NCBI GenBank assembly: GCA_963662515.1
Contig: OY759675.1
Coordinates: 773,473-837,472 of the forward strand
Direction of reading: 5' to 3'
DNA: 64,000 nucleotides
From: Sedimentisphaerales bacterium
Lineage (GTDB): Bacteria; Planctomycetota; Phycisphaerae; Sedimentisphaerales; SM23-30
This document shows, piece after piece, positions 4,497 through 21,334 of the stretch. Both the position numbers and the translations under genes were made by a program. The notes below the pieces were generated by a model that was given only the letters and a program-made list of their open reading frames with translations, did no database searches and had not been told where the DNA came from. Numbering within the stretch: the stretch's first letter is position 1; each line of letters begins with the position of its first letter.

Positions 4497-5933
4497 CTAT
4501 TTATCAGTGCCAACCAGTTCAACGAGCTGGCTGACTACTTCATTCATTATTCTGGCCTGAGAGTCGATCTCATCGGCGGCATTAGCTGAATCTTCCACAT
4601 TGCAGGCATTAGTCTGTGTTACCTTGTCAATGGCAGAGACCGCCGAATTTAACTGTTGTATGCCTTCTGCCTGTTCGCTGTAAGCGATGCTGATCTCTTC
4701 TTCCAGTTTGGCAACAAATTCAATTGATTCGTTAATGGCCTCAAAGCTCTTGCCGACCTCTCCGACAATAGAAACGCCGCTCATGGCATTCTGGACTGAT
4801 TTTTCGATCAGTTGTGCGGTACTGCTGGCGGCCTGGGCCGACCTCATGGCCAGGTTACGAACTTCCTCGGCAACAACGGCAAATCCTTTGCCAGACTCTC
4901 CGGCACGAGCCGCTTCAACTGCGGCATTAAGAGCCAGCAGATTGGTCTGGAAGGCTATTTCGTTAATAGTTTTAACGATGGCCTGAGTTTCCTGTGAAGA
5001 GCGATTTATTTCCTGTATAGCCTGATTCATTCTGGTCATGGCCTCTATGCCGTTCTTAGATGAGTTACTGGCTTTGATAACATGTTTATTAGCTTCTTTA
5101 GTCTTGGCTACATTGCCTTCTGTCATGGTTGACATTTCTTCCAGTGAGGCAGAAGATTCTTCCAGGCCGGCAACCTGCTCATTTGTACCGTCCTTAATAA
5201 CAATGGCACTGGTCTTGATCTTGCCCGACATTTCGGTAAGCTGCTGACCAGCGGTACAAAGCTGGTTGATAACAGTATTGATAGGTCCTATAACAGATTT
5301 GCTGATGACAAACCAGGTTATTGCCAGGGCCACCAGGGCCAGACTGCCTGCTACTACAAGCAGGGTAATGTTCAGTTTGTTGGTATTGCTTGCTACCTGA
5401 GCCAGAGACGACTTAAGGTATCCGGCCATGTCAGTAGCCAGAGTTTCAAATTTGGCGAAATATTCATCTTTTTGTTTAGCAATTGACCCGGCCATTGACT
5501 CAGCCTGCTCGGTTGTCATGCCGGTGTTGGTGTCGCCAGCCATTGTGCCATATACTTTATTGGCTTTGGCAGTATAGTTCTTGTATTCTTCAACAAGCTT
5601 ATTGATCTCGATTATTTTGTCTTTACTTACGGCATTGTCGGTTACTATTGAGCCAAGAGCATTCTGTATGCTGTCGCTTTCGGCCTGAGCCAGTTTGATG
5701 TTTTCCACTTCGCCCAGCATTACTGCGTCCATGTATAACTTGGTCTGATTTTTGAAGGCGGCAAATGCCTGCTGGCTGTTTTGTGTGGCCGGGAATACTT
5801 TTTCGGCTATCTGGCTTAGCTTTTGACCATTCTGTGTGCCCAGAATATAACTGGCAAGAGAATTAGCCAGAATACCGACGAGCAAAATACCTACTACTGC
5901 CCATAGTTTTGCTTTAATGCCTATTTTTCTCAT
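4497..5933 (-). CDS. methyl-accepting chemotaxis protein
   Basis: 478 aa. It has an N-terminal TM segment, a ~170-aa periplasmic-like region and a second TM segment. The highly conserved MCP signalling hairpin is present ([39 protein letters not shown]). Confidence 0.9.
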
Positions 5934-6284
5934 TTGTCATTCCTTGTAAAACTTAATGTCAAAGTTGTCTAACAGCCTTCTGAGCCATTTTGATATTCGG
6001 TTATATGTTATGCTAACTGAAGTTTAGTGTTTATTCTTTATTATATAAATGTGTTTTACAGTATTTGAGTAATGTCTTTGTCGTTTAATGTTTCTATGGA
6101 TAGGAACTTGTGTTCCAATTCTTTATTTAACAGGTTGTTGTTGATTTTTTGGTACTGTGCCTTTTAATATTTTTCTTGCAAATAAAGCAGAAATAGATTA
6201 AAAAGGGGAAGATGTTAGTTTGATAAAAAATCATAGTAAAAATATTTGTAATAGGTGTATCTGAGTGTAATTATAGGACTAATA

Positions 6285-7511
6285 ATGTCAGAATACGATT
6301 TCAGTATAATTCAGTTTTTACGACAGCGATACTTTATGAGTCGCCAGCAGTTGGCTGAGAAATGTGGTGTATCGCGTCAGACTATATCTAATATAGAGCA
6401 AGGGCGTTTTGTCCCGTCCTTGCCTGTTATAATGCAGATATGCAGTTCACTGGACCTTAAGTATGGTGAGCTGATAAGTTATTGTCGGCGTATGCCCACC
6501 AGGTTAATAGAGGGTGAGTCGGTGGTGCTGCCAGATAATGCAGGGCGGGCAGTCTTGTACTCTTTGTCAGATAAGTCGTTGGCATATATAGAGTTAAATG
6601 CTGATGTATCTTATGTTCTCAAGAAGTATCAGGTGCAATGTATATATGTTATAGAAGGTACTGTGTCAATTTCGTGCAGTTGTTGTGAAAATGAGGCAGT
6701 AGCCGGTGACATGGTGACCCTTGAGGGTGTGGGGTGTCGTGTTGAGGTGAAAAATGGACCGGCACGAATAGTGGCAATGAGTTTGCCGGGTACGAATAAG
6801 GCATCTCAGCTGATGTTTGCCAGTAAAAAGACAGGCGTTAATCGTTTCTTTACTTTTAATGAAACAACTGCCGGTAAAGGTAAAGAAGAGTTGAGAGAGT
6901 TTGATTTTTCTATAATACGAGACTTGCGTAAGGCAAGAGGGTTTATTCAGGATGATTTTCTCGCCAGGTGTTCACTGACCTCCCAGACTTTACAGGCGAT
7001 TGAAAGGAATGATCGTTGCCCGGGTTTGTCAACCCTTGATCTGATAGCTGAAGCTCTTGATGTTGATCTGGTAGATATGCTGGAACTGGCCCGGCGCGGC
7101 AGTTGTCAGGTTGGCCAGACTCGTATGACTACCTTTGGCGGCAAAGGCGGCGATCGGGGTAATGTTGATATGGCTTTGAGCCAGATGCGTTTTGATAAGT
7201 ATCGCATGGGGTATCTGAGTAATGGAACTGGTCAGGAGGTAGAGGTTCCTTCTGAAAATGTATATATAGCCCAGGAAGAATTTGTCTTTGTAATTAATGG
7301 CAAGCAGTCCGTGATGATTGGCGAGACGGAACATAAACTCAAGGCAGGTCAGGGTTTACTTTTTGATGGGCGGGGAGTGCATAGTTATAAAGTATCTCAG
7401 GGTAATGAGAGTTTTGCAATTTTTACGCTAAAGCAGGATGCCTTATATAATGGGCCGGTTGACCAGAAAAGCGGTGGTACACTATATAAATTTGGCGATG
7501 TTCTGGCGTAA
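6285..7511 (+). CDS. transcriptional regulator with two tandem XRE-HTH + cupin modules
   Basis: HTH 1 is RQRYFMSRQQLAEKCGVSRQTISNIEQGRFVPSLPVIMQICSSL. HTH 2 is RKARGFIQDDFLARCSLTSQTLQAIERNDRCPGLSTLDLIAEAL. Each is followed by a ~100-aa beta-rich cupin-like segment. The start may be GTG 6255 or ATG 6285. Confidence 0.7.
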   Translation: MSEYDFSIIQFLRQRYFMSRQQLAEKCGVSRQTISNIEQGRFVPSLPVIMQICSSLDLKYGELISYCRRMPTRLIEGESVVLPDNAGRAVLYSLSDKSLAYIELNADVSYVLKKYQVQCIYVIEGTVSISCSCCENEAVAGDMVTLEGVGCRVEVKNGPARIVAMSLPGTNKASQLMFASKKTGVNRFFTFNETTAGKGKEELREFDFSIIRDLRKARGFIQDDFLARCSLTSQTLQAIERNDRCPGLSTLDLIAEALDVDLVDMLELARRGSCQVGQTRMTTFGGKGGDRGNVDMALSQMRFDKYRMGYLSNGTGQEVEVPSENVYIAQEEFVFVINGKQSVMIGETEHKLKAGQGLLFDGRGVHSYKVSQGNESFAIFTLKQDALYNGPVDQKSGGTLYKFGDVLA

Positions 7512-7544
7512 GATATAAATTTGATATAATAAATCAGGTCCTAT

Positions 7545-7581
7545 AACGGCATATTTCGAGATGAATATGCCGTTTTTTTTT
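7545..7581 (+). terminator. rho-independent terminator
   Basis: AACGGCATATT-loop-AATATGCCGTT followed by T9. Confidence 0.7.
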
Positions 7582-7824
7582 ATCTTTAAAAAAATCGGTT
7601 TTCAGTATTGGAAACAGCTTTTATGGTCATTATTAAGGCTGATAATGGGTGGCAATATTGAGTTAACTTCAGCATTTTAACTCTCTTATGGTGAAATCGG
7701 GGAAATAGACAATAGAAAAAAAGTATCATTGTCGATTATCTAGGCACATGAGTTTATCTCAATATAAAAGTCAGTAATTAAACAGAAGTTAAAGTAGTAA
7801 CATAATTATTACAGGAGACATTTC

Positions 7825-8283
7825 ATGAAGTTATTAAGAGCGACAATGATGGTTCTGGCAGTGTTTGGTGTTATGTTGACACAGACGGCCAGTGCTCAGG
7901 AAGTGGCCGCATCAGACATAGTGCTGGTGGCCAATGCCGATGTGCCGGGTACGACGCTGGACGCAGCGACCGTAGAAAATATCTTTACCGGTAAGACCTC
8001 ATCGGTAGGTGATAAGAAAGTAGAGATCACCATATTAAAAGCCGGAGCTGTGCATGAGGCATTCTTAAAACATTATATTAAGAAGACCGACAGTCAGTTC
8101 ATCAACAGTTGGAAGAAACTGGTATTTTCCGGTAAGAGCAAGATGCCCAAAGACTTTGCCACAGAAAAAGAGATGGTAGAGTATATAGCCAAGACTTCCG
8201 GTGCTATCGGTTATGTGCATGTTAATACTTCCAAGGATGGCAGTATTATGACAGACAAGGTTAAGGCAATAACAATTAAATAA
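7825..8283 (+). CDS. small secreted protein, copy 1 (resembles short PstS/PBP-like_2 substrate-binding-domain proteins)
   Basis: 152 aa with signal peptide MKLLRATMMVLAVFGVMLTQTASAQE. Motifs ..IFTGK...W..LVFSGKSKMP......E.V.YIA.T.GAIGYV recall phosphate-binding-protein-like domains. The functional call is tentative. Confidence 0.75.
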   Translation: MKLLRATMMVLAVFGVMLTQTASAQEVAASDIVLVANADVPGTTLDAATVENIFTGKTSSVGDKKVEITILKAGAVHEAFLKHYIKKTDSQFINSWKKLVFSGKSKMPKDFATEKEMVEYIAKTSGAIGYVHVNTSKDGSIMTDKVKAITIK

Positions 8284-8307
8284 TGGGATATGGTGAGGAT
8301 ACAGACT

Positions 8308-9486
8308 ATGAATAGGTATATAACATTAATAGCTATTATTATTACAGTTTTATTTATGACTGTTCCGGCCTCAGCTCTTGAGCTGGATATGACAGAAATA
8401 GGCTTCCCGATCGATAAGATCGAGATGCACGGCTTCTTTTCACAGGGTTATATGAAAAGCACCAATAATGATCTGTATGGAGACAGTCGTGATGGAACAT
8501 TAGACCTGCGTGACTTTGGCGTTAACTTTTCCGGTAATCTTACAGATGATCTGAGATTAGCGGCACAGTTTACTGGCTATTCGCTGGGTGAGCAGGGTGG
8601 CGATAAGATCAATCTGCATTATGGTTATGCTGATTACAGGCTTGTCGATGCTCTTGGTTTTCGTCTTGGTCGTGTTCGTGTGCCATCTGGTCTTTATAAT
8701 GAGACTCGTGACATTGATATGGTTCGCACCCATGTTTTCATGCCCCAGAGTGTTTATCCGGAAGAATATCGTGATTATTATGCTTCGGCAGATGCTTTTG
8801 TAACTTATGGTGGTGTTGACATGGAATCACTGGGCTTTTTGTCCTATCAGGGTCATGTTGGCAGATTGATAAATGATGATGATCCGGTAAGTGATGTGCC
8901 GCTTAGTATGCGTGCGCAAGGGTTAGAGAACAATGTATTTACCGATGGTCATAGCGCCGGAGCCCAGTTATTGTGGGAAACACCGGTTCAGGGTCTGCGT
9001 ACAGGCTGGACCTGGCGTCGCATAGACAACAATATGAGTAGTGAGTTTACTATACCAGGCGTGGGTACATTCCCGGTCCATACTCCTATAAAGAATGTTT
9101 CATTGCAGGTATGGTCATTAGAGTATGTAATAGATCGTCTTACTCTGATGAGTGAGTATTCCTATGTTTCAATAGACAGTGTTCCAAATTTCACAGGCTG
9201 GTACGCCGGTGCTGATTATGCTCTGACTGATAAGTTTTCTATAGGTGGTAACTATAGTCGTTACTCTTTGGAGCGTGGTGCCAGACCTGGTATCAATCCG
9301 GAGGATATTTACGGTCATCAGAATACAGTATCTGTTTATGGTAAGTATGACATAACAGCCAACTGGCTTATAAAGGCTCAGGTAGATATGAATCGCGGTT
9401 TAGCCCGCTATCAGGGCTTTTCTCGCTCGGCAGATGATGAGCTGGAAAGCATGTTATTCTCAGTTAAGACCACCTGGTCATTCTGA
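8308..9486 (+). CDS. outer-membrane beta-barrel (porin-like) protein, paralog 1
   Basis: Signal-like N-terminus (MNRYITLIAIIITVLFMTVPASALE), an alternating-hydrophobicity strand pattern and the C-terminal beta-signal ..SVKTTWSF (terminal Phe). The RBS GGTGAGGA lies 8 nt upstream. Confidence 0.8.
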   Translation: MNRYITLIAIIITVLFMTVPASALELDMTEIGFPIDKIEMHGFFSQGYMKSTNNDLYGDSRDGTLDLRDFGVNFSGNLTDDLRLAAQFTGYSLGEQGGDKINLHYGYADYRLVDALGFRLGRVRVPSGLYNETRDIDMVRTHVFMPQSVYPEEYRDYYASADAFVTYGGVDMESLGFLSYQGHVGRLINDDDPVSDVPLSMRAQGLENNVFTDGHSAGAQLLWETPVQGLRTGWTWRRIDNNMSSEFTIPGVGTFPVHTPIKNVSLQVWSLEYVIDRLTLMSEYSYVSIDSVPNFTGWYAGADYALTDKFSIGGNYSRYSLERGARPGINPEDIYGHQNTVSVYGKYDITANWLIKAQVDMNRGLARYQGFSRSADDELESMLFSVKTTWSF

Positions 9487-9512
9487 TAAGTATCTTTAAG
9501 TCAAAAAGTTGT

Positions 9513-9544
9513 AGCCGCAGGGGAAAATTCTCTGCGGCTTTTTA
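9513..9544 (+). terminator. rho-independent terminator after barrel 1
   Basis: AGCCGCAG-loop-CTGCGGCT followed by TTTTT. Confidence 0.7.
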
Positions 9545-9583
9545 TCCGTAATACAATATTTCCTATGGTATGGAGATGAAAAA

Positions 9584-10042
9584 ATGAAATTACTAAGAGC
9601 GACATTGATGGTATTGGCAGTGTTTGGTGTTATGTTGACACAGACGGCCAGTGCTCAGGAAGTGGCCGCATCAGACATAGTGCTGGTGGCCAATGCCGAT
9701 GTGCCGGGTACGACGCTGGACGCAGCGACCGTAGAAAATATCTTTACCGGTAAGACCTCATCGGTAGGTGATAAGAAAGTAGAGATCACCATATTAAAAG
9801 CCGGAGCTGTGCATGAGGCATTCTTAAAACATTATATTAAGAAGACCGACAGTCAGTTCATCAACAGTTGGAAGAAACTGGTATTTTCCGGTAAGAGCAA
9901 GATGCCCAAAGACTTTGCCACAGAAAAAGAGATGGTAGAGTATATAGCCAAGACTTCCGGTGCTATCGGTTATGTGCATGTTAATACTTCCAAGGATGGC
10001 AGTATTATGACAGACAAGGTTAAGGCAATAACAATTAAATAA
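9584..10042 (+). CDS. small secreted PBP-like protein, copy 2
   Basis: Nucleotide-identical to copy 1 from about codon 13 to the stop. The protein differs only at residue 8 (M to L). Confidence 0.75.
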   Translation: MKLLRATLMVLAVFGVMLTQTASAQEVAASDIVLVANADVPGTTLDAATVENIFTGKTSSVGDKKVEITILKAGAVHEAFLKHYIKKTDSQFINSWKKLVFSGKSKMPKDFATEKEMVEYIAKTSGAIGYVHVNTSKDGSIMTDKVKAITIK

Positions 10043-10065
10043 TGGGATATGGTGAGGATATGATA

Positions 10066-11244
10066 ATGAATAAGTATATAACAAAAATAGTGATGTTTAC
10101 GACAGCCTTGTTTATGGCTGTTCCTGTACTGGCGATAGAGCTGGACACAACTGAGATAGGTTTCCCAATCGAGAAGGTTGAGATGCACGGCTTCTTCGCC
10201 CAGGGCTATATGAAGAGTTCAAATAACAGCGTTTTTGGTGAAAGTCATGATGGTACACTTGATCTGCGTGACTTTGGTGTTAACTTCTCTGGCTATCTGA
10301 CAGAAGATATTCTTTTAGCTGTGCAGTTTATGGGTTACAGCCTGGGCGACCAGGGTGGTGACAAGATCAATCTGCATTATGGTATATTTGACTATAACTA
10401 TTGTGATGAACTTGGCTTCAGGGCCGGGCGTGTGCGTGTTCCGCTGGGGTTGTACAATGAGACTCGAGATATTGACATGCTTCGTACGAGCATCTTCCTG
10501 CCTCAGAGTGTTTACCCGGAGACCAGTCGTGATTATTTTGCTTCGACTGATGCGGTTTCTCTGTATGGTGGATTTGATCTGGAAGAAATGGGTTTCCTGT
10601 CATATCAGACCCATATAGGCAAGCTGATAAATGATGATGACCCAACCAGTGACCTGACATATCTCTTCAGGGGGCTGGGATTTTACGATATGCATTATGA
10701 AAATGGTAATAGTGCCGGAGCTCAGTTGTTGTGGGATACTCCGGTTCAGGGGTTGCGTACAGCCTGGAGCTGGCGTCGTATAGATAATACTGCTATAGGT
10801 ACAATTGAAGTTCCCGGCGTAGGTCCTTTGGCAATTCCGATAACAGTTACCAACCATTGTAATCAGGTCTGGTCAGTTGAATATCAGATAGATAAGCTGA
10901 CACTTTCAGCTGAGACCAGCAGAGTGACAATTGATGGTCTGCCGGATGCTACTGGTTGGTATGCCGGTGCAAATTATGAGATAACAGAAAAGTTCTCATT
11001 GGGCGGCAATTATAGTAGGTATGCTTACGATCGTGGTAATGCCTCAGGTACAAATCCTGATCTGATGAATGGTTTTCAGCATACAGTATCGCTTTATGGT
11101 AAGTACAATATCACACCAAGCTGGATAGTGAAGGCTCAGGTTGATATGAACAGAGGTACTGCGTTAAATCAGAATTTCTCTCGTACAGCAGGCGATGAAC
11201 TGGAAAGCACACTGTTTGCAGTTAAGACCAGCTGGTCATTCTGA
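10066..11244 (+). CDS. outer-membrane beta-barrel protein, paralog 2
   Basis: Same architecture as paralog 1 and ends AVKTSWSF. There are many substitutions and indels relative to paralog 1, especially at LINDDDPTSDLTYLFRGLGFYDMHYENGNS. Confidence 0.8.
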   Translation: MNKYITKIVMFTTALFMAVPVLAIELDTTEIGFPIEKVEMHGFFAQGYMKSSNNSVFGESHDGTLDLRDFGVNFSGYLTEDILLAVQFMGYSLGDQGGDKINLHYGIFDYNYCDELGFRAGRVRVPLGLYNETRDIDMLRTSIFLPQSVYPETSRDYFASTDAVSLYGGFDLEEMGFLSYQTHIGKLINDDDPTSDLTYLFRGLGFYDMHYENGNSAGAQLLWDTPVQGLRTAWSWRRIDNTAIGTIEVPGVGPLAIPITVTNHCNQVWSVEYQIDKLTLSAETSRVTIDGLPDATGWYAGANYEITEKFSLGGNYSRYAYDRGNASGTNPDLMNGFQHTVSLYGKYNITPSWIVKAQVDMNRGTALNQNFSRTAGDELESTLFAVKTSWSF

Positions 11245-11271
11245 TAATTATCCTTTAAGTCAAAAAATTGT

Positions 11272-11302
11272 AGCCGCAGGAGGGGGCTCCTGCGGCTTTT
11301 TG
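11272..11302 (+). terminator. rho-independent terminator after barrel 2
   Basis: AGCCGCAGG-loop-CCTGCGGCT followed by TTTTT. It is homologous to the terminator at 9513. Confidence 0.7.
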
Positions 11303-11341
11303 TCCGTAATACAATGTTTCCTATGGTATGGAGATGAAAAA

Positions 11342-11800
11342 ATGAAATTACTAAGAGCGACATTGATGGTATTGGCAGTGTTTGGTGTTATGTTGACACA
11401 GACAGCCAGTGCTCAGGAAGTGGCCGCATCAGACATAGTGCTGGTGGCCAATGCCGATGTGCCGGGTACGACGCTGGACGCAGCGACAGTAGAAAATATC
11501 TTTACCGGTAAGACCTCATCAGTAGGTGATAAGAAAGTAGAGATCACCATATTAAAAGCCGGAGCTGTGCATGAGGCCTTCTTAAAACATTATATTAAGA
11601 AGACCGACAGTCAGTTCATCAACAGTTGGAAGAAACTGGTATTTTCCGGTAAGAGCAAGATGCCCAAAGACTTTGCCACAGAAAAAGAGATGGTAGAGTA
11701 TATAGCCAAGACTTCCGGTGCTATCGGTTATGTGCATGTTAATACTTCCAAGGACGGCAGTATTATGACAGACAAGGTTAAGGCGATAACAATTAAATAA
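11342..11800 (+). CDS. small secreted PBP-like protein, copy 3
   Basis: Protein identical to copy 2. Six third-position nucleotide differences were seen by eye. The ORF-track start at 11195 reads through the terminator and is not credible. Confidence 0.75.
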   Translation: MKLLRATLMVLAVFGVMLTQTASAQEVAASDIVLVANADVPGTTLDAATVENIFTGKTSSVGDKKVEITILKAGAVHEAFLKHYIKKTDSQFINSWKKLVFSGKSKMPKDFATEKEMVEYIAKTSGAIGYVHVNTSKDGSIMTDKVKAITIK

Positions 11801-11823
11801 TGGGATATGGTGAGGATATGATC

Positions 11824-13008
11824 ATGGATAAGTATATAACAAAAATAGCAATGGTTATGACAGCCTTGTTTATGGCTGTTCCTGTGCTGGCGATAGAGTT
11901 TAATACTGCTGAGATAGGGTTCCCGATTGAAACAGTTGAAGTTCATGGATTTTTCAGCCAAGGTTATATGAAAAGCTCTAATAATAATGTATATTCCAAA
12001 TCACATGAAGGTACTTTGGATCTTAGGGATTTTGGTATAAACTTTTCTGGGTATCTAACAGAGGATATTCGGCTAGCGGCTCAATTTATGGGCTATTCGC
12101 TGGGAGATCTTGGAAAAGACCATATTAACCTGCATTATGGTTATGTTGACTATAACATAGCAGATGAACTTGGTTTCCGTGCAGGTCGTGTTCGTGTGCC
12201 GGCAGGTTTGTATAATGAGACTCGAGATATTGATATGCTCAGAACAAGTATTTTTTTACCACAAAGTGTATATCCTGAAGTATATCGAGATTTCTTTGCC
12301 TCTGTTGATGCGGTTTCAATTTATGGTAATATTGATTTAAATGATTTAGGGTCATTAAACTATTCAGCGCATGTTGGTACTTTGGTTAATGACGAAGACC
12401 CGGCCAGTGACCTGCCGTTTTTATATGGCAGCTCAGGTTTGTATGATATCTATTTTGACCGTGGATGTTCAGCTGGTGCTCAGCTTGTATGGTACACTCC
12501 TGTTAATGGTTTGGTTTTAGGCTGGACATGGCGTAGAATAGATAATATTATTCAAGCCAAAGTTGACACCCCCGGTGGGACAATTAATGTTACCCCAGAA
12601 ATTGATAATTTTGGCACTCAGATTTGGTCGGTTGAGTACACAACTGGGAAGTTGGTGCTAAATGGTGAGCTTACGGTTCTGACTGAACACAGAAACGGAA
12701 CTGGTCCGGCTGCTATGGGTTGGTACACCGGGGCAGAATATGAGTTGACCGACAAGTTTTCTGTAGGTGGTAATTATAGTACATATCATAATGAGGCAGG
12801 GGCGTCTTTCTTACGAAGGGCAGATCCGGTTCAGAATTATGAGGACACATTCTCTGTTTACGGTTGTTATGATATAACAGATAGCTGGCTGGTGAAGGCT
12901 CAGGTAGATTACAATAAAGGAACAGGCCGTCATCGTAATTCATATTCTTCCGCTACAGATGAGATCGATAGTGTGCTGTTTTCAGTTAAGACCACCTGGT
13001 CATTCTGA
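11824..13008 (+). CDS. outer-membrane beta-barrel protein, paralog 3
   Basis: Same family (GFPIE..HGFFSQGYMKSSNN..YNETRDIDMLRTSIFLPQSVYPE) and ends SVKTTWSF. Confidence 0.8.
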   Translation: MDKYITKIAMVMTALFMAVPVLAIEFNTAEIGFPIETVEVHGFFSQGYMKSSNNNVYSKSHEGTLDLRDFGINFSGYLTEDIRLAAQFMGYSLGDLGKDHINLHYGYVDYNIADELGFRAGRVRVPAGLYNETRDIDMLRTSIFLPQSVYPEVYRDFFASVDAVSIYGNIDLNDLGSLNYSAHVGTLVNDEDPASDLPFLYGSSGLYDIYFDRGCSAGAQLVWYTPVNGLVLGWTWRRIDNIIQAKVDTPGGTINVTPEIDNFGTQIWSVEYTTGKLVLNGELTVLTEHRNGTGPAAMGWYTGAEYELTDKFSVGGNYSTYHNEAGASFLRRADPVQNYEDTFSVYGCYDITDSWLVKAQVDYNKGTGRHRNSYSSATDEIDSVLFSVKTTWSF

Positions 13009-13273
13009 TATTAGCTAAATATTCAAGCATGGAAGCTCCAGTGTAAAATCTGCGGCTTTCATGCTTGTGATTTATCAGCTCCCAGAAACGAGTATGTTGT
13101 ATCAAGCATTGGTAATGTGGTGCCAGAGTATTAGATCAGATTGGGCGGGGGTCAGTCTGGTCATGTACTCTGGTAAGTAGTAAAAAGTTTATTCTGGTCA
13201 GGGATGACAGAGTAAGTACAGATAAGGTTGGGGCGAGAGCCCTTAATAGAAGATTATTGTAAGGAGTTAAAAT

Positions 13274-14461
13274 ATGTATAGATCGATGATTAAAGTAGCA
13301 TTAGTTTTTGCTGGTTTGTGTCTGGCGGTGCCGGTTTCGGCTATAGAGCTGGATACAACTGAGATCGGTTTCCCGATCGAGAAGATCCAGATGCATGGTT
13401 TCTTTTCGCAGGGTTTTATGAAGAGTTCCAATAATGATGTATATGAAGGCAGTCGTGATGGTTCCTTTGACCTGCGTGAGTATGGCGTGAATTTTAGTGG
13501 CAATCTTACCGATGAACTGCTGCTGGCTGCCCAGATTATGGGGTATAGCCTGGGTGGGCAGGGCGGTGATGAAATATTTCTGCATTATGGTCTGGCTGAT
13601 TATCGGGTGAACGATAATTTTGGTATAAGGGCCGGTCGTATGCGTATCCCGGCGGGTCTTTATAATGAGACTCGCGATATTGACATGGTGCGTAAGTCAG
13701 TTATTTTACCACAGAATGTATATTCAGAATATTATCGCGATTACTACTCAGCTCTCGATGGTGGTAGTATTTACGGTGGCTTTGATCTGGATGATCTGGG
13801 TTATCTCTCATATCAGGCCGGTATAGGCAAGCCGATAACTAATGAGAGTGAAACGGGTGATTTTCCTTATAATTTTGGTGCCTTTGGGAATGGTGTAGTA
13901 GAAGGTCTCCGTAATATAAGCTATGCTGAAACTCATAGTGCCAATTTTCAGTTACTTTATGAGACCCCGGTAGATGGTCTGCGTGTAGGATATACCTGGC
14001 GTCGGCTTGATGCTGAATTTGCCGGCGAAGGTTGGGTGCCGGCCTTTGGTGTATGGGTGCCAATGAGTTTAGATATGAAAAACTATGTTAATCAGATATA
14101 TTCAATAGAGTATCAGGTAGGTCGTTTGACGCTGGTAACCGAAGCAGTGGTTCGTACCTCTGATGGTACCAAGCAGAATCAGGGCTGGTACAGTGGCATA
14201 GATTATGATCTGACCGATAAACTTGGTGCTGGTGTTTATTATGCTGAGTATGTTTCTACTGATGAATCAACTGATTATAAGAAGGCTGACCAGAAGACTA
14301 TTTCGCTTTTCAGTCGTTATAATATAACTGATAGCTGGCTGGTAAAAGGGCAGGTTGACTTTAACGATGGTAATGGTAATGCCCCGTGGCCGACCAAGAG
14401 ATATGCTACAGACGGCGGCGACAGTGTATTGTTCTCAGTAAAGACCACCTGGTCGTTCTGA
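13274..14461 (+). CDS. outer-membrane beta-barrel protein, paralog 4 (no preceding small gene)
   Basis: Same family. It has its own RBS (TAAGGAG), is the most diverged of the four, and ends SVKTTWSF. Confidence 0.8.
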   Translation: MYRSMIKVALVFAGLCLAVPVSAIELDTTEIGFPIEKIQMHGFFSQGFMKSSNNDVYEGSRDGSFDLREYGVNFSGNLTDELLLAAQIMGYSLGGQGGDEIFLHYGLADYRVNDNFGIRAGRMRIPAGLYNETRDIDMVRKSVILPQNVYSEYYRDYYSALDGGSIYGGFDLDDLGYLSYQAGIGKPITNESETGDFPYNFGAFGNGVVEGLRNISYAETHSANFQLLYETPVDGLRVGYTWRRLDAEFAGEGWVPAFGVWVPMSLDMKNYVNQIYSIEYQVGRLTLVTEAVVRTSDGTKQNQGWYSGIDYDLTDKLGAGVYYAEYVSTDESTDYKKADQKTISLFSRYNITDSWLVKGQVDFNDGNGNAPWPTKRYATDGGDSVLFSVKTTWSF

Positions 14462-14485
14462 GATAGTGTTAATTATAGGACATTA

Positions 14486-14531
14486 AACGCATTATGTCGG
14501 AGTATAGCCCCGGCGTAATGCGTTTTTTTTT
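14486..14531 (+). terminator. rho-independent terminator closing the barrel array
   Basis: AAACGCATTAT-loop-GTAATGCGTTT followed by T9. Confidence 0.7.
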
Positions 14532-14904: not shown

Positions 14905-16047
14905 ATGACAATGGAAAATATGGTACAACGCAGATCAGAGGCTGTTTATATAGTTGATGAAGAGGGGCGTATAATACACAGCTGTCGTAATTATGCTGAT
15001 GGTGGCGTTAGTATGCTGCCGGAGCAGGGGAGTATTTGTTCGGTTATATGTCATAAGAGCCCTTGCGATAAATGTCTGCTGCAAACTGCCTTAGAGAGCG
15101 GTGAATGTCAGCATCAGCAGCGAAATGCAGATGGTGGTATTGTCCATGTTCGCATCTGGCCTATAAGTGCCGAGGTGCTGGGTAAGAAATTTGCCATACT
15201 GTTCTGGCAGGATATTTCCAGTCAGAAGAATATGGAGGCCCAGTTATACCATAGTCAGAAGCTCGAGGCTATAGGCGAGCTGGCCGCAGGCGTGGCCCAT
15301 GAGATCAATAATCCGCTGGGCTTTATCTATGGTAATCTCAAGGTCATGCAGGAGTATGCAGAGGTATTCAAAAAGAGCATGGAGCTGATGAGGCAGTTAG
15401 GTCAGGCAGGTCCGGATAAAGCGGAAAATCTACTGGAGCAGTTAGTTGCTCTTGATCAGGTCGAAGATCTGGAGACCATAGCAGCCGATATCGACAGTCT
15501 GCTGGCTGATAGTGTATCTGGTGCTGCCAGGGTGACTGAGATAGTGTCGAATCTCAAGTCATTTGCCCGTCCGGATTCTAAAGAGAAGCGGGATTACAGT
15601 GTAAATGATGGCCTGATAAGTACGCTTAAGATATTGAATAATGAGTTGAAATATAAATGTACGGTAATAACAGACTTTGAAGAGGTGCCTGATATAGAAT
15701 GTTATCCGGGCGAGCTTAACCAGGTATTTGTTAATATTATAGTTAATGCCGCCCAGGCGATAGCAGAGCATGGCGAGATACGAATAAAGACCTGGGCTCA
15801 GCAGGATAATATATGTATTGAGGTAGCAGATTCGGGTTGTGGTATCAAGCCCTGTGATATAGATCATATCTTTGACCCGTTTTTCAGTACCAAGCCAGTA
15901 GGTAAAGGTACGGGGTTGGGTTTGTCGGTCTCGCACGGCATAGTAGAAAAGCACGGCGGCCGAATAGAAGTTAAAAGTGAGCTGGGAGTCGGTACGGTTT
16001 TTACTATAATCCTGCCCGCCCAAAGACAGGCATCGTATCAAAAATGA
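14905..16047 (+). CDS. cytoplasmic sensor histidine kinase (Cys-rich PAS-like N-domain)
   Basis: H-box LAAGVAHEINNPL, N-box NIIVNAAQA, G1 DSGCGI and G2 GTGLGLSV. The N-terminal ~110 aa carries CSVICHKSPCDKC. No TM segment is seen. Confidence 0.85.
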   Translation: MTMENMVQRRSEAVYIVDEEGRIIHSCRNYADGGVSMLPEQGSICSVICHKSPCDKCLLQTALESGECQHQQRNADGGIVHVRIWPISAEVLGKKFAILFWQDISSQKNMEAQLYHSQKLEAIGELAAGVAHEINNPLGFIYGNLKVMQEYAEVFKKSMELMRQLGQAGPDKAENLLEQLVALDQVEDLETIAADIDSLLADSVSGAARVTEIVSNLKSFARPDSKEKRDYSVNDGLISTLKILNNELKYKCTVITDFEEVPDIECYPGELNQVFVNIIVNAAQAIAEHGEIRIKTWAQQDNICIEVADSGCGIKPCDIDHIFDPFFSTKPVGKGTGLGLSVSHGIVEKHGGRIEVKSELGVGTVFTIILPAQRQASYQK

Positions 16048-16054
16048 GGAAGTA

Positions 16055-17587
16055 ATGATTCGAGCGAAGATAAAAACAAAGATATGGCTGGTATTGGGCC
16101 TGCTGATGACCAGTATATTGGTCAATCATATTACCAGTAATATCTCTGCGCATTACAATGCAAAAAGGATTGCGACGGTACAAAATAATCTTATTCCCCT
16201 GGCCAGGGCTGGCGATTCCTGTGTGGTAATATATCAGAATCAGATAAGTATGTATCAGGACGCGGTTGTATTTGGCGATAAGAGCATATTGGATCAGGCA
16301 GGGAAATTGCGTATAGAAATTGCCCGCCGGTTTGAAGAAATGCTGGCTGATACATATCTCACGCCCGAGGCCAAGCAGAATATAGCCCGGATCTTTGATG
16401 ATTACAGTCAGTTTGCCATAGCAGCTGAATATGTATATGGTATGCTGGCCAGTAATGATGCCGATAAAGTGCTGGAAGCTCAGCGTCTGACCCCTGAGCT
16501 GAGCGATAACAGTGATAAATTGCTCAAACGCATTACAGTTATGTCTGAGCACCTTGGCAGTTTACTCCGTCAGGAACTGGCCGGTGTAGTGGGCAGTACT
16601 CATCGGGTTAATACTGTGCTTTTGGTAATTTCTCTGCTGGTGATCATTTTAGTAATGCTAATTAATATTTTCATTGTCAAGGTATCGATAATAAGGCCTG
16701 TGACTGATGTGTATGAACAGCTTGATAAAGTGCAGAAGACTCGTGAGATAGAAGGTAAGTTATATCAACGAAATCGACTTGAATCTCTGGGAGAGCTTGC
16801 CGGCGGTATTGCCAGTGAGATAAGTGAGCCCCTTAACAGGATACAAAAAGGGCTGACTTTGTTAAATGAATATTCCGAGGTAGTTCAGCAGGTGGTAAAG
16901 TTATCGGATGAGATATCTCAGGCGAAGCCGGAGCATTTACCAGAGCTGACTGGCAAACTACGCATGCTGCAACAGCGAACAGACTTTGCCGATGCAGTAG
17001 ATAATGCTGAAGAGGTGATCAGCGATTGTGCTGAATCGGTAGCCAAAGCCAATGGCATAATATCTGACATGCAGTCTTTTGTCAGTCTGGGCGATGGTGA
17101 GCCGGTTCGCTATAATGTGGTAGATGGTGTAAAATCGGTTTTGCAGATCATGCAGCGTGAGATCAGCGAAAAATGTACTGTGCGAGAAGATTTTGCGGTA
17201 GTATCTGATATAGTCTGTTATCCTGGCGAGGTGAACCAGGCCTTAATGAATGTATTACATAATGCAGTTCATGCTGTGGGGGGTGGCGGTTTGGTAGAGG
17301 TGAGCGTCTGGGAGGAAAGTGCCATAGTCAATGTCCAGATAAAGGATAATGGCTGCGGCATGAGTCCGGATGAGCTGGCTCACATATTTGATCCGTTTTA
17401 TTCCATGAGTAGTACTGAGCTTTGGCGTGGTCTGGGGCTGCCGGTAGCACAGAGTATAATACGAGGTATGAACGGTCAGATACTGGTCGATAGTCAGTTG
17501 GGTAAGGGTACGGTCTTTACAATAATGTTGCCGGTAGTAGCCAGGCAGAAACAGCAGATGCCAGCGGAAGTGCCGCAAGGTGAATAG
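16055..17587 (+). CDS. membrane sensor kinase-like protein lacking the phospho-acceptor His
   Basis: Two TM segments flank a ~170-aa helical periplasmic-like domain. The H-box position reads LAGGIASEISEPL, with Ser (codon 16814-16816) where the neighbouring kinase has His. The ATP-binding boxes are intact (NVLHNAVHA, DNGCGM, GLGLPV). Confidence 0.8.
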   Translation: MIRAKIKTKIWLVLGLLMTSILVNHITSNISAHYNAKRIATVQNNLIPLARAGDSCVVIYQNQISMYQDAVVFGDKSILDQAGKLRIEIARRFEEMLADTYLTPEAKQNIARIFDDYSQFAIAAEYVYGMLASNDADKVLEAQRLTPELSDNSDKLLKRITVMSEHLGSLLRQELAGVVGSTHRVNTVLLVISLLVIILVMLINIFIVKVSIIRPVTDVYEQLDKVQKTREIEGKLYQRNRLESLGELAGGIASEISEPLNRIQKGLTLLNEYSEVVQQVVKLSDEISQAKPEHLPELTGKLRMLQQRTDFADAVDNAEEVISDCAESVAKANGIISDMQSFVSLGDGEPVRYNVVDGVKSVLQIMQREISEKCTVREDFAVVSDIVCYPGEVNQALMNVLHNAVHAVGGGGLVEVSVWEESAIVNVQIKDNGCGMSPDELAHIFDPFYSMSSTELWRGLGLPVAQSIIRGMNGQILVDSQLGKGTVFTIMLPVVARQKQQMPAEVPQGE

Positions 17588-17588
17588 T

Positions 17589-18404
17589 ATGTCCCGAGAA
17601 GAAAAAGAGCTGAGAAAAGTACTTTTCGTTGATGATGAGCGGTCGATATTATCGACCTTGCAGCGGACACTGCGTCGTGAGCCTTATGAGATCATGACCT
17701 GTGATAATGCTCTTGATGCTCTGGAACTGGTGTCTGCTAACGATATAAATGTAGTCATAGCTGATCAGCGTATGCCTGATATGCCCGGTACAGAATTTCT
17801 GCAAAAAGTGCGTGAAATAAGCCCTGATACTGTTCGTGCGATCATATCGGGTTATGCCAATGCCGATATGATTGTTGACTCTATCAATCAGGGTGAAGTG
17901 TATCGATTTATTCCCAAGCCCTGGGAAGTGTCAGATCTTAAAGATGCGGTTAATCAATGTCTGCGTCATAGTGAAGTGCTGCTTGATAATCGGAACCTGA
18001 TACGAAAGGCTCATGCTCGTACGGTAGAGCTTAAGAGTCAGAAAGATTTGTTAGAAAACAAGGTAGAGCAGCGAAATATAATATTGGAATATACTCAGGA
18101 GATGCTGGAGTATATGCCGGTGTCAATGTTAGGTGTGAATATGAAAGGCGAGATATTGCTTTGTAATGAACATGCCCGCACTTCAATGGAAGAGTTGGTA
18201 GATTTTGAGCCTGGCTGTCAGTTAGTTCAGGTGTTTGGAGCAGAAGTATCTCGCCTGGCAGCAGAATCTCGTGATATGAGTTTGCGTGCGTGCCGAAGGT
18301 TTAATTTGCGTCGAGGTCAGTATGAATTTGAATTTATACCCCTAATGCGAAGTCGGATAAATGGACAATTAATAGTGATAAGGTATATAGGTCAGGTAGC
18401 CTGA
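17589..18404 (+). CDS. response regulator, REC + uncharacterised PAS-like C-terminal domain
   Basis: REC motifs are present: FVDDE, VVIADQRMPDMPG and KPW. No DNA-binding domain was recognised. Confidence 0.8.
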   Translation: MSREEKELRKVLFVDDERSILSTLQRTLRREPYEIMTCDNALDALELVSANDINVVIADQRMPDMPGTEFLQKVREISPDTVRAIISGYANADMIVDSINQGEVYRFIPKPWEVSDLKDAVNQCLRHSEVLLDNRNLIRKAHARTVELKSQKDLLENKVEQRNIILEYTQEMLEYMPVSMLGVNMKGEILLCNEHARTSMEELVDFEPGCQLVQVFGAEVSRLAAESRDMSLRACRRFNLRRGQYEFEFIPLMRSRINGQLIVIRYIGQVA

Positions 18405-18422: not shown

Positions 18423-19340
18423 ATGGAACGGAAGGTATTGATAGTTGATGATGAACTAAGCGTACTCAAGGCATTGGAGCGGGCCTTGCGGAAGGAAGGC
18501 TATGGTCTGTTGACAGCCGAAAGTGGTGAGCATGCCCTGGAGTTGCTCTCTGGTTACAAGGTGGCAGTGATCTTATCTGATATTAATATGCCCGGCATGA
18601 ATGGTATCGAGTTCCTTTCTCGTGCTCAGCAGGTATCTCCTGATTCGATCAAGATGGTATTGTCTGGCTATGCCGATATCGATCTGGTAATGGATGCGAT
18701 CAATCATGGTCATGTCTGGCGATATCTGACCAAGCCCTGGCAGCCGGAAGATGTGCGGGTAGCCATAGATAATGCTATGGGGTTGTATGATGTACGGGCT
18801 GAGCGAGAAAGCCTGCTGACTGCATTAGAGATAAAAAATCAGCAGCTGGTTAAGTGGAGCAATAAGCTCGAAGATATGGTTGATCGCCGTACTGAGCATA
18901 TACAAAATGAACTTATGCTTATGACCTGTCTTATGGAAGGCTGCGACCTGGAGTGCTTTTGCAGTAAGGTTATGCCCTTGTATGAAGAGCTGTTCGGTAC
19001 GGCTGATGTCAGTCTGTTCTCCGCTGCTGATGGTGTGTGCTATAATCGCTTTGGTATTGTAAATAAAGATCAGTGTCAGTGTGCCGATATCCTGGCCCAG
19101 GTACAGCAAGACAAGCAGCTTATTGCAGATAAGGATCAGGTAATGATTCCGGTTTTGAATAATGATATGCTGCTGGGGGCTTTGTGTATCAGGAATCATG
19201 CTGTATCATTGGATGATATTGGTCAGGACTATGAATCGTATATGGCTATAACATCAATAGCTATGCTGCACAATCTGATGAAGGTTAACACTCCGGACAT
19301 GATCAGGAATATAGAGAAGGTACTTCAGGAAATAGAATGA
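18423..19340 (+). CDS. response regulator, REC + uncharacterised (GAF-like?) C-terminal domain
   Basis: REC motifs are present: IVDDE, VILSDINMPGMNG and TKPW. The C-terminal ~170 aa is unassigned. Confidence 0.8.
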   Translation: MERKVLIVDDELSVLKALERALRKEGYGLLTAESGEHALELLSGYKVAVILSDINMPGMNGIEFLSRAQQVSPDSIKMVLSGYADIDLVMDAINHGHVWRYLTKPWQPEDVRVAIDNAMGLYDVRAERESLLTALEIKNQQLVKWSNKLEDMVDRRTEHIQNELMLMTCLMEGCDLECFCSKVMPLYEELFGTADVSLFSAADGVCYNRFGIVNKDQCQCADILAQVQQDKQLIADKDQVMIPVLNNDMLLGALCIRNHAVSLDDIGQDYESYMAITSIAMLHNLMKVNTPDMIRNIEKVLQEIE

Positions 19341-21334
19341 GTTCGGCAACTAGTATAAATGTGGTTGTTTCGGCTGATGGCAGTAAGGCAGTATTGCCCT
19401 TGCTTGCAGCTGAAAGTCCCGGCGGCATGCCAACCGATATGGACATGGTATTGGCAGCGCTGCGCGTTGACAATGTCGTTGCTCATATTGATAAAGATGC
19501 TATTGCCGCCGCTCTTGAACGAGCTGCTCAGACGCAGCGACCAGTGAATGATGTTGTTGCGGCTTATGCCCGTCTGGAACATGAGTTTCGGTTTTATGGT
19601 TATGAAAAGGGTATTGACACTCGCCAGTTGACTGATGAAATAAAGAATGCTCGTTTGGTTTATTCTCTGCTTTCAGGTGATCAGGAGGCAGAGCCGGCAA
19701 AAGCCCATTGGTGTGAGACTGGCAGATTATTGTATGAAGTTATATATGCAGACACTCAAAATATCTTTGGCGAAAAGCTGACTCGAAAGGCACTGCCCTT
19801 CGGACTGGGTGTTGGTAAGAATGTAGTAAATGATAAGACGGCGATAGGTTTCAGATATATATCTGATTCGCCGGGCTTTTTAGCTTTAGATGACCGCGAT
19901 GTAATGCATCTGGTGTCTCCTTTTGTTGTCTCAGAAGATAAAATGGTTATCTGGCTGCGGCTGGTACAGTTGCAAGACAAAAGTGCAATTGAGCTGGTAT
20001 TGAACGAGATCAGAAGATTGTATTCGCTGGTGATTTTGCCGCAGTGTCAGGAAGTTGGCCTGGAGGAAGCAATAGCTCAGGCAATAGAATTCTTTAACAG
20101 CGAGCAGGATTTCTTTGAATTGGTGGTGGCAAGGGGCCGCGATGTTGTGCCCGGTGAACCTGGTCGTATAGAATATCTGGTTAATCTTAATGGCAGGCCG
20201 CAGGATATTGATGCTCAGAGGGTCGATTACGGTGATTATACCCGATACTGTATGGTGCAGCAGGGTCAGGGGCTGGTTGAGATCATTCGTCCTGTACAAG
20301 GAGAAGCCGGCGTTGATGTTGTGGGTAATGTGATTGAGTGTGATCTGTTAGAAGAGCCTGTAATGAAAATTGCCGAATGCGTCGATGTTGATGAATCGGG
20401 TGGCCGAAAGTTGCTTCGTTCTGCAATGGATGGTTGTGTCTTTTTTGAAAAAGATTCTGTTAGGGTAACTGATACCGTTATTATCTCGGGTAATGTCGGA
20501 CCAGAAACAGGCAGTATAAAAAAGGGAGCCAGTTCGGTTATCGTCAAGGGTAATATACTCAGTGGCTATGCGGTTGAATCTGATAATTCAGTTATTATTG
20601 AAGGTAGTGTGGAAAATGGCGGACGGGTGAATTGCCGCCAGCTGGCAGTGCATAAAGGGGTATTTGGTAAAAAGAGCAGTGTTTATGTTACTGGCGATGC
20701 TGAGATCGGTTATATTCATGGTGGGGTGGTGCGGGTGCTGGGCAACCTTGTGGTATGTCGCTATTTAATGGAATCGGAAGTAACCTGTCGTGGGCAGCTT
20801 GTTGTGCAGGGGCAGGGGGCCAGCGGCAAGGAACGAGGTGCGGTTATTGGCGGCAATATCAGCGTGCTGGGCTCGGTTTTTCTTCATTCGGTGGGCAGTG
20901 GTTCAGAGCCGACCCGGGTCTGCTGCGGGATTGATGCTTATTTGTATAATAAGCTGCTTGTCTGCCGCAATATTATTTCTGGTCTGAATACTGAGGTTGT
21001 GCGTATGCAGCGCTCGATCGGGTTTAATCTGGGTAGTCCTGATGCGGTTAAGCGGCTTAAAAATATGTCAGCGGAGCAAAGGGAAGTTATTACTAGTAAA
21101 CTTGCCCAGATCAAGAAGATGCTGGTCCAGATCGACCAATATCAGCAGCAGATAAAAAAGGTTGAAGATAAAGCTCTGGCTCGCAATATGGCTGATCTGC
21201 GTTTGCAGGTTGAACGGCATGTTATTCCGCGTACTGTACTGGCTATCGGACTTGCCGAGATAGATATTACTACCCGCTTTAGCGGTATCTCAGCCCGCTT
21301 AAAAGAAAATGAAGTAGTGATCGAACCTATCTGA
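19337..21334 (+). CDS. DUF342/FapA-like protein
   Basis: 665 aa. The central region has Gly/Val-rich beta-helix-like repeats (GNVGPETGSI..VIVKGNILSGYAVESDNSVIIEGSVENGGRV..), followed by a C-terminal coiled coil. The start overlaps the upstream stop (ATGA). Confidence 0.6.
   Translation: MSSATSINVVVSADGSKAVLPLLAAESPGGMPTDMDMVLAALRVDNVVAHIDKDAIAAALERAAQTQRPVNDVVAAYARLEHEFRFYGYEKGIDTRQLTDEIKNARLVYSLLSGDQEAEPAKAHWCETGRLLYEVIYADTQNIFGEKLTRKALPFGLGVGKNVVNDKTAIGFRYISDSPGFLALDDRDVMHLVSPFVVSEDKMVIWLRLVQLQDKSAIELVLNEIRRLYSLVILPQCQEVGLEEAIAQAIEFFNSEQDFFELVVARGRDVVPGEPGRIEYLVNLNGRPQDIDAQRVDYGDYTRYCMVQQGQGLVEIIRPVQGEAGVDVVGNVIECDLLEEPVMKIAECVDVDESGGRKLLRSAMDGCVFFEKDSVRVTDTVIISGNVGPETGSIKKGASSVIVKGNILSGYAVESDNSVIIEGSVENGGRVNCRQLAVHKGVFGKKSSVYVTGDAEIGYIHGGVVRVLGNLVVCRYLMESEVTCRGQLVVQGQGASGKERGAVIGGNISVLGSVFLHSVGSGSEPTRVCCGIDAYLYNKLLVCRNIISGLNTEVVRMQRSIGFNLGSPDAVKRLKNMSAEQREVITSKLAQIKKMLVQIDQYQQQIKKVEDKALARNMADLRLQVERHVIPRTVLAIGLAEIDITTRFSGISARLKENEVVIEPI

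Follow-up and report, generated by a model that had tools for sequence, protein, structure and literature searches.

A window of 64,000 nucleotides from a Sedimentisphaerales bacterium (assembly GCA_963662515.1, contig OY759675.1, positions 773,473 to 837,472) contains a tandem array in which genes for a small secreted protein, here termed S, alternate with genes for an outer-membrane barrel, termed B. With about even confidence, the region is read here as the part of a sensory system across the envelope that takes in the signal; B would be the porin, S the periplasmic component, and proteins with a periplasmic domain designated Nsens, encoded next to the array, the inner-membrane sensors; the combination of porin, S and a sensor-domain gene is a widespread and apparently undescribed module. 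Open reading frame (ORF) listing and repeat finding bear out the layout given in a first-pass annotation of this DNA: three head-to-tail S+B units are followed by a fourth, solo barrel, with unit periods of 1759 and 1758 bp measured between the S starts at 7825, 9584 and 11342. All of these genes are on the forward strand; the units consist of S1 (7825..8283) and B1 (8308..9486; longest ORF from 8290), S2 (9584..10042) and B2 (10066..11244; longest ORF from 10042), and S3 (11342..11800) and B3 (11824..13008; longest ORF from 11800), and they are followed by B4 (13274..14461), which has no S gene upstream. Each S gene encodes 152 amino acids (aa), the barrel gene (~392 aa) begins 24 nt after each S gene, and the C-terminal residues of B1-B4 are TTWSF or TSWSF. 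A tblastn search turned up no additional S or B copies in the 64-kb window, nor did the 265-bp spacer 5' of B4 contain an S remnant. A 201-aa ORF at 11195-11800 (+) is S3 plus a spurious N-terminal stretch that runs over the last part of B2; S3 itself starts at 11342.

The array lies between regulatory and sensory genes. Upstream are a methyl-accepting chemotaxis protein (MCP; 4497..5933, reverse strand; Pfam MCPsignal), whose periplasmic N-terminal ~200 aa constitute the Nsens domain, and a regulator that carries two HTH_3 domains and, C-terminally, a cupin (6255..7511, forward strand, Pfam). Downstream, on the forward strand, follow a soluble histidine kinase whose N-terminal region is rich in cysteines (HK1; 14905..16047; Pfam HisKA and HATPase_c), a membrane histidine kinase with a periplasmic Nsens domain (HK2; 16055..17587; Pfam HATPase_c), two receiver-domain proteins whose C-terminal parts have no Pfam match (RR1, 17580-18404; RR2, 18423-19340), and a FapA-like (DUF342) protein (19337-21334). 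The initial annotation had placed the array between the regulator and a five-gene sensory operon without counting these genes as part of the system. The MCP and HK2 share the Nsens domain, which travels with S+B in other phyla. The Nsens domains of the two proteins are mutually homologous although their outputs differ, and they are homologous to sensors located beside S-B pairs in loci L002, L005 and L011; the Pfam matches of the domain, to TarH and 4HB_MCP_1, are both sub-threshold. By these sequence comparisons, the flanking sensory genes appear as members of the S+B system. Six cysteines, among them those of SICSVICHKSPCDKC, lie in the N-terminal ~110 residues of HK1, a protein with a 62% identical counterpart in a related metagenome-assembled genome (MAG); they suggest that HK1 has a site for a metal or redox cofactor.

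The regulator and HK1 are syntenic in loci L001 and L091. The syntenic locus of the related MAG comprises an MCP on the reverse strand, the HTH-cupin regulator, three S-B pairs, HK1, HK2, two RR genes and FapA, and L091 shows the order regulator-S-B-HK1-HK2-RR-RR-FapA with a single pair; in L092 and L093, a single S-B pair stands beside a divergently oriented MCP gene, an ortholog of the MCP of the window. The barrels of clade I (B1-B3, sB1-2, L092 and L093, with B3 grouping with the L092 barrel) are linked to MCPs, and those of clade II (B4, L091, the spirochaete locus L005, and sB3, the third barrel of the Sedimentisphaerales MAG OY763926) are linked to kinases. Since the relatives carry either one or the other module, and since the barrel clades follow the sensor type, the window appears to merge two ancestral modules, an MCP-linked pair that was triplicated and a kinase-linked pair that lost its S. 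The sensor beside the S-B pair is a kinase in a spirochaete MAG and an MCP in a JGI metagenome locus. In Thalassotalea sp. G2M2-11 (L011, NZ_JADNYL010000001, 7027-12683), the MCP, a porin-like ORF and S, with the accessions WP_206483498, WP_206483499 and WP_206483500 in this order, are followed by the gene for acetyl-CoA synthetase (acs), which may hint at a carboxylate ligand; this culturable gammaproteobacterium is a possible experimental model.

An S-seeded metagenome scan yielded 79 loci; local hidden Markov models for S, B and the sensor domain were applied to these and to the loci collected earlier, 86 in total and drawn from several phyla. These 86 loci contain 102 S genes, and a same-strand adjacent barrel was present in 80 of the 91 testable cases; the order was B-S in 66 and S-B in 10 of them, and a barrel stood on both sides in the remaining four. 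A sensor-domain gene was present in 49 of the 86 loci, almost always in the order B, S, MCP/sensor; among loci of at least 6 kb (n = 39), 36 contained a barrel and 25 a sensor domain. In L014 an S-B pair is located between two MCPs, and the flanking ORFs were read as CheA, CheW, CheY and CheB on the basis of size and N-terminal sequence; L028 carries an S-sensor pair without B. Tandem (B-S)n arrays occur with three pairs in L051 and with two pairs in at least eight other loci. These neighborhoods also bear on a reading in which B and S are a nutrient-uptake accessory pair, B as a substrate-specific porin and S as a periplasmic sink or chaperone; the sensors would merely regulate or accompany the pair, and the array would provide dosage or condition-specific variants. 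The conserved core is B+S, some pairs have no adjacent sensor, pairs of porin and binding protein are well known from uptake systems (OprP/PstS, LamB/MalE, OprB/GltB), and the acs gene in L011 would fit, as would an alkaline phosphatase gene two genes downstream of S-B in L092 (11863-13263), the only phosphate-related neighbor seen. However, no inner-membrane transporter was found beside the window pair or among the annotated neighbors in related loci, where part of the flanking ORFs was scanned; genes for an ABC permease or ATPase are absent between positions 256 and 26596 of the window and beside the pair in L001 and L091-L093. Moreover, S directly adjoins the sensor gene in most loci, and in L028 it does so without B. 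A role as an uptake accessory is considered quite unlikely.

The S protein has a Sec-type signal peptide that ends in ASA and lacks a lipobox, as read from the sequence; the mature protein has ~128 aa. Profile, structural model and Foldseek comparison agree with the earlier description of the small gene as coding for a signal-peptide protein with a PstS-like half-domain. The Pfam profile PBP_like_2 matches S at 26.4 bits, below its cut-off of 27, and the match extends over positions 76-199 of 267, equivalent to one lobe; the score for TIGR02136 (16.7) does not reach its threshold of 206.6. The AlphaFold model of S, built with 22 homologs (pLDDT 90), shows one alpha/beta lobe with five strands and five helices in place of the two-lobe hinge architecture of PstS-type proteins. 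In the Foldseek comparison with the PDB, PstS proteins ranked at the top (E 6e-7, probability 1.0) and were matched in lobe II; ~130 residues of S align to half of the 240-320-residue targets (TMt 0.22-0.38). The S family profile also matches PstS chains (E 7.5e-8), at residues 74-181 of the pneumococcal protein and residues 95-204 of the E. coli protein. On the basis of these models and alignments, S is predicted to be secreted and to consist of one lobe only, descended from lobe II of a PstS-type binding protein. The phosphate site of PstS is not retained in S, because the aligned ligand residues are replaced: R135, D137, S139, G140 and T141 of E. coli PstS have L, A, A, V and H as their counterparts, and in the profile alignment to 1ixh the segment 'VVRRADGSGTSF' of S is placed opposite 'TILKAGAVHEAF'. 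At the equivalent helix N-terminus, the S family has a near-invariant His, with Arg in some distant members. Ordinary OprP/PstS phosphate uptake was rejected in view of the one-lobed S, its missing ligand residues, the lack of an ABC transporter nearby, and the insignificant Porin_O_P score of the barrels.

The S family is large: a profile search of 1.84 billion representatives found 5,962 proteins (50%-identity clusters) at E<=1e-10, and among 150 listed matches the lengths are mostly 135-160 aa. The sources label B as "hypothetical"; S, where it has a name at all, bears the same label or is called a "phosphate ABC transporter substrate-binding protein." Among the same 150 clusters, tandem S-S proteins occur, together with three kinds of fusion, each of them represented by one cluster: P0056, a BlaR1-type M56 membrane transducer, ends in two tandem S domains that make up its extracytoplasmic portion, P0103 joins S to a YfiR-like domain, and P0076 joins S to a TonB C-terminal domain. 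The S-S tandems and the BlaR1-type fusion are hints that S may work in pairs and as an envelope sensing domain. Two further candidate relationships were discarded; homology of S to YfiR (DUF4154) was rejected after profile comparison (hhalign of the S profile vs. the YfiR-like domain, probability 0.2%), and a link of small PstS-like proteins to TtpB of the Vibrio TonB2 systems does not hold, as TtpB2 is a DUF3450 protein (PMC6957404).

The identification of the second gene as an outer-membrane barrel is sustained by its structural model and by the porins that this model retrieves. The AlphaFold model, built with 27 homologs (pLDDT 86.6), has 16 strands, a 35-residue loop between strands 5 and 6 at the position of L3, short turns on the opposite side, and a C-terminal WSF; these are the features of the general-porin architecture with its 16 strands, long L3 and C-terminal Phe, and B1-B4 all end in WSF. 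Foldseek retrieved general porins and OprP/OprO (E ~1e-13, TMq 0.55-0.63) at sequence identities of 10-16%, with OprO and OprP as the top scorers (TMq 0.61-0.63, identity 11-12%). Porin_4 scores of B1-B3 were 25.6, 24.4 and 26.1, compared to a threshold of 27, and covered the C-terminal third only; B4 had no Porin_4 match in Pfam, Porin_O_P matched B1 only and insignificantly (E 0.13, 11.9 bits vs. a cut-off of 20.9), and searches of the barrels against NCBIfam and PDB sequences returned nothing. B is therefore predicted from its model to be a 16-stranded outer-membrane porin.

Sequence variation was mapped by aligning seven barrels, four from the window and three from the related MAG, and placing them on the AlphaFold model. 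The barrel proteins of the window are 51-65% identical to one another; identity among these four paralogs is highest in the N-terminal segment (79%), strands 1-3 and 5 (76-80%), L3 (75%), strands 15-16 (74-81%), and the periplasmic turns T1, T4, T6 and T7 (67-83%, with T4 and T6 at 75-83%), and lowest in strands 8-11 (36-44%) and in the loops L4 (36%), L8 (32%) and L7 (14%). The conserved and variable blocks that had been picked out previously find their places on the model: HGFFxQGYMKS forms strand 1, YNETRDIDMxR and LPQSVYPE belong to L3, and the variable blocks fall into surface loops, mainly L4, L7 and L8, with the quoted hypervariable block in L4. The L3 motif GLYNETRDIDMxR is nearly invariant family-wide and across phyla, and the conserved N-terminal segment of the family reads EIGFP; a comparison of lumen-facing and lipid-facing variability by hydrophobic parity was uninformative (60% vs. 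53%). In OmpF-type porins, strands 1-5 and 15-16 build the trimer interface. The best-conserved strands of B (1-5 and 15-16) coincide with this set, an indirect hint that B may assemble as a trimer.

The earlier proposal that the barrels differ in specificity is weakened by this pattern; the diversity itself stands, but the constriction loop L3 is among the best-conserved parts of the four paralogs, and a conserved L3 eyelet argues against new channel specificities. The presence of several barrels is more likely explained by surface variation or by condition-specific expression. In an explicit version of the former, alternative porin loops would evade phage, bacteriocins or grazers, and S would have a housekeeping role; this account is compatible with any mechanism of the module and addresses the number of barrels. 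It would fit the concentration of differences in L4, L7, L8 and that half of the barrel which faces outward, units with terminators of their own, and the recurrence of arrays in unrelated lineages. It does not fit as well with the lack of invertible segments and switchable repeats in the array, with dN/dS values well below 1 even in the loops (0.12-0.43, with dS saturated), or with loops that are largely stable between orthologs. Evasion by surface variation is a tentative possibility, less likely than not.

The same distribution of conserved and variable parts could also reflect trans-envelope signaling without solute relay, in which the barrels are surface receptors for varied cues or envelope states and S is a constant coupler that shuttles from their periplasmic side to the sensor, comparable in its logic to YfiB-YfiR-YfiN and to TonB-dependent transducers. 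Conservation of the turns on that side and of the N-terminal segment (67-83%, compared to 14-36% in the surface loops) would agree with such a role; several barrels are served by one S, and B4 lacks an S of its own; S occurs fused to TonB C-terminal, YfiR-like and BlaR1-type partners (P0076, P0103, P0056); and a single lobe is poorly suited for ligand clamping. Yet the top signature of the barrel family is located in the pore-constricting L3, an indication that a channel function has been conserved; B has the fold of diffusion porins, no homology connects S with YfiR, and each of the fusions is represented by just one of the 150 clusters listed. Signaling without solute relay, the main rival of the sensory reading with solute relay, appears rather unlikely. 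Its more specific form, in which S physically links barrel receptors to chemoreceptors or kinases and thereby constitutes a TonB-independent and previously unrecognized route across the outer membrane, is rather unlikely; if it were true, gene conversion would keep the coupler uniform over an expandable set of receptors.

The contrast between S and B within the array extends to the nucleotide level. Between S1 and S2 there are 5 nucleotide differences, which are confined to nt 1-31 and cause one residue change (M8L), and S2 matches S1 exactly from nt 32 to 18 nt beyond the stop codon; S2 and S3 differ by 6 nt, all synonymous. Sliding-window comparison gives a nucleotide identity of 97-100% over S, an abrupt fall to ~65-75% at the barrel start, and values between 40 and 87% over the barrel gene. 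The original observation of a constant S accompanied by differing barrels is thus accurate (S 99-100%, barrel proteins 51-65% identical), but its interpretation as rapid divergence of the barrels is not supported. Silent sites of the barrels are saturated (pS 0.65-0.78, dS 1.5 to infinite), and crude Nei-Gojobori estimates of dN/dS are 0.16-0.28 overall and 0.12-0.43 in surface loops; positive selection on the loops was not detected, as dN/dS is below 1 everywhere, in a test that has no power with dS saturated. In other assemblies, the B1 ortholog P0203 is 89% and the B2 ortholog P0024 is 93% identical, with nearly unchanged L4 loops, and B4 is closer to sB3 of MAG OY763926 (68% identity), a barrel that has its own S, than to any barrel of its own genome.

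S behaves differently. Its identity is 99-100% within the window, 79-93% within MAG OY763926, and 68-72% between them; in MAG JXM68, four substitutions relative to the window S are common to both of its S copies, and in MAG OY763926 long identical tracts of sS1 and sS2 flank a divergent patch. In neighbor-joining trees, which were calculated without support values, the barrels form two deep clades by paralog lineage, and S groups by genome. These sequence patterns support homogenization of the S copies by gene conversion or concerted evolution; the contrast between S and barrel would accordingly stem from this homogenization and not from fast evolution of the barrels. Among nine unrelated tandem arrays, five combine S-S identities of 90-93% with B-B identities of only 46-71%. 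The array of the window is a clean example of one operon gene being homogenized while its neighbor diverges.

In the favored sensory reading, a small solute, probably anionic, would enter via B and would be bound by S, probably acting as a pair of lobes; loaded S would dock on the sensor domain of the MCP and of HK2, the MCP would drive chemotaxis, and HK2/HK1, RR1/RR2 and the FapA-like protein would run a phosphorelay. A gene-converted, uniform S would allow every barrel to work with the same S and the same sensors; the barrels are old paralogs, alike in eyelet, N-terminal half and periplasmic face but different at the cell surface. The genetic linkage between S and the sensor is strong; that S docks on the sensor is proposed by analogy to binding-protein-dependent sensors such as MBP-Tar, PstS-CtpL, GltB-GtrS and LuxP-LuxQ. 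Several points weigh against this scheme. The metagenome loci represent the best 80 matches to S, which are phylogenetically clustered and not independent; the association was counted from S to its neighbors, and a word-index search starting from the sensor domain returned one fragment. The sensor is absent near the pair in L021, L024, L076 and L077, and the Desulfobacterales S genes L006-L008 have no barrel nearby, so that a sensor-independent role of the pair is possible. A single lobe cannot close on a ligand like a two-lobe binding protein; the ligand cleft between two lobes is missing from an S monomer, and the tandem S-S proteins hint at a two-lobe assembly. The phosphate ligands of PstS are replaced in S, and the structures of S and B are predictions. 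In one of the barrel-less Desulfobacterales loci (Desulfosudis, L008 10444-12201), S is preceded by LptF and LptG and followed by a Ser/Thr protein kinase.

The spacers of the array were inspected for regulatory elements. A terminator scan found terminator-like hairpins on the forward strand after the regulator (7545-7574), after B1 (9513-9539) and after B2 (11272-11297), and a terminator hairpin with a T-run follows B4 (14485-14525, forward strand). The hairpin after B3 (13024..13067, forward strand) was read by eye and was not called by the scan; it is degenerate: of the unit terminator, the 3' half (CTGCGGCTTT) alone is left, at 13049-13059, and the T-run is weak. The statement that each unit ends in its own terminator consequently holds for B1, B2 and B4, and fails for B3. 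The unit terminators of B1 and B2 have the outer stem AGCCGCAG/CTGCGGCT in common and differ in inner stem and loop; the gap from hairpin to the next S start is only ~44 nt. Leaders and spacers between 6000 and 16000 gave no Rfam match to a known RNA, riboswitches included, at E<=0.1, and no operator common to the five intergenic regions was found except for the terminator remnant. A phase-variation switch was rejected, as the sole long inverted repeat is the B4 terminator hairpin; an assembly artifact was rejected, as the barrels differ strongly between units and comparable arrays exist in related genomes; and a foreign island was rejected, as composition is uniform over the region.

Two further genes lie toward the margins of the region. 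A large hybrid histidine kinase, in which CHASE and PAS domains are combined with HisKA, HATPase and receiver domains, is encoded just past the sensory operon (22946-26596, reverse strand). An M48 peptidase gene occurs near the module in three genomes (window 256-1575, forward strand; L091 6353-7165; L093 1229-2035); in L091 and L093 it also adjoins an Rnf/Nqr cluster, and its position looks like synteny and not like a functional link.

The module matters in several respects. The S-like family is large and unstudied, its name "phosphate ABC transporter substrate-binding protein" is misleading, and its barrel partner has no family assignment. The linkage of S to one sensor domain provides a candidate input mechanism for many orphan sensors of Planctomycetota, Spirochaetota, Moduliflexus, Gammaproteobacteria and uncultured bacteria of JGI metagenomes. 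Natural single-lobe binding proteins also bear on the origin of two-lobe ones.

The statement of the first-pass annotation that this is not a described system agrees with the literature searched, in which no description of the pairing was found; nor is it the ordinary OprP/PstS type of phosphate uptake. Individual components nevertheless resemble known systems. S is secreted and homologous to lobe II of PstS (PBP_like_2), and its genetic linkage to a chemoreceptor parallels the functional coupling of PstS with CtpL in Pseudomonas aeruginosa, a precedent for binding-protein-mediated sensing (PMC8050422). Unlike PstS, S has one lobe with replaced ligands, no pstCAB nearby, scores below Pfam and NCBIfam thresholds, and a porin family of its own as partner. 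In the glucose system of Pseudomonas, the genes for the porin OprB and the binding protein GltB are likewise united in one operon (gltBFGK-oprB), and the binding protein activates the sensor kinase GtrS and binds the chemoreceptor PctA (PMC7927077). This system differs from the module in the window by its ABC transporter, its two-lobe binding protein, its other protein families, and its lack of tandem arrays. B shares its predicted 16 strands, long L3, short turns and C-terminal aromatic signal with OmpF, OmpT, Omp32, OmpM1, Porin_4 and OprP/OprO; it differs from known porins by identities of only 10-16%, its own L3 signature GLYNETRDIDMxR and the conserved EIGFP segment at its N-terminus. With YfiBNR, the module has a three-tier envelope architecture in common, and the S-YfiR fusion P0103 exists; in contrast to YfiBNR, however, S is not a YfiR homolog, the outer-membrane component is a barrel and not a Pal-like lipoprotein, and the outputs are MCPs and kinases instead of a diguanylate cyclase. 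By analogy, the module would belong to an already-known kind, binding-protein-mediated sensing; what appears to be new, judged from the sequences, is that a binding protein of one lobe is combined with a porin family and a sensor domain of its own, that a transporter is missing, and that the arrays can expand and show gene conversion selectively.

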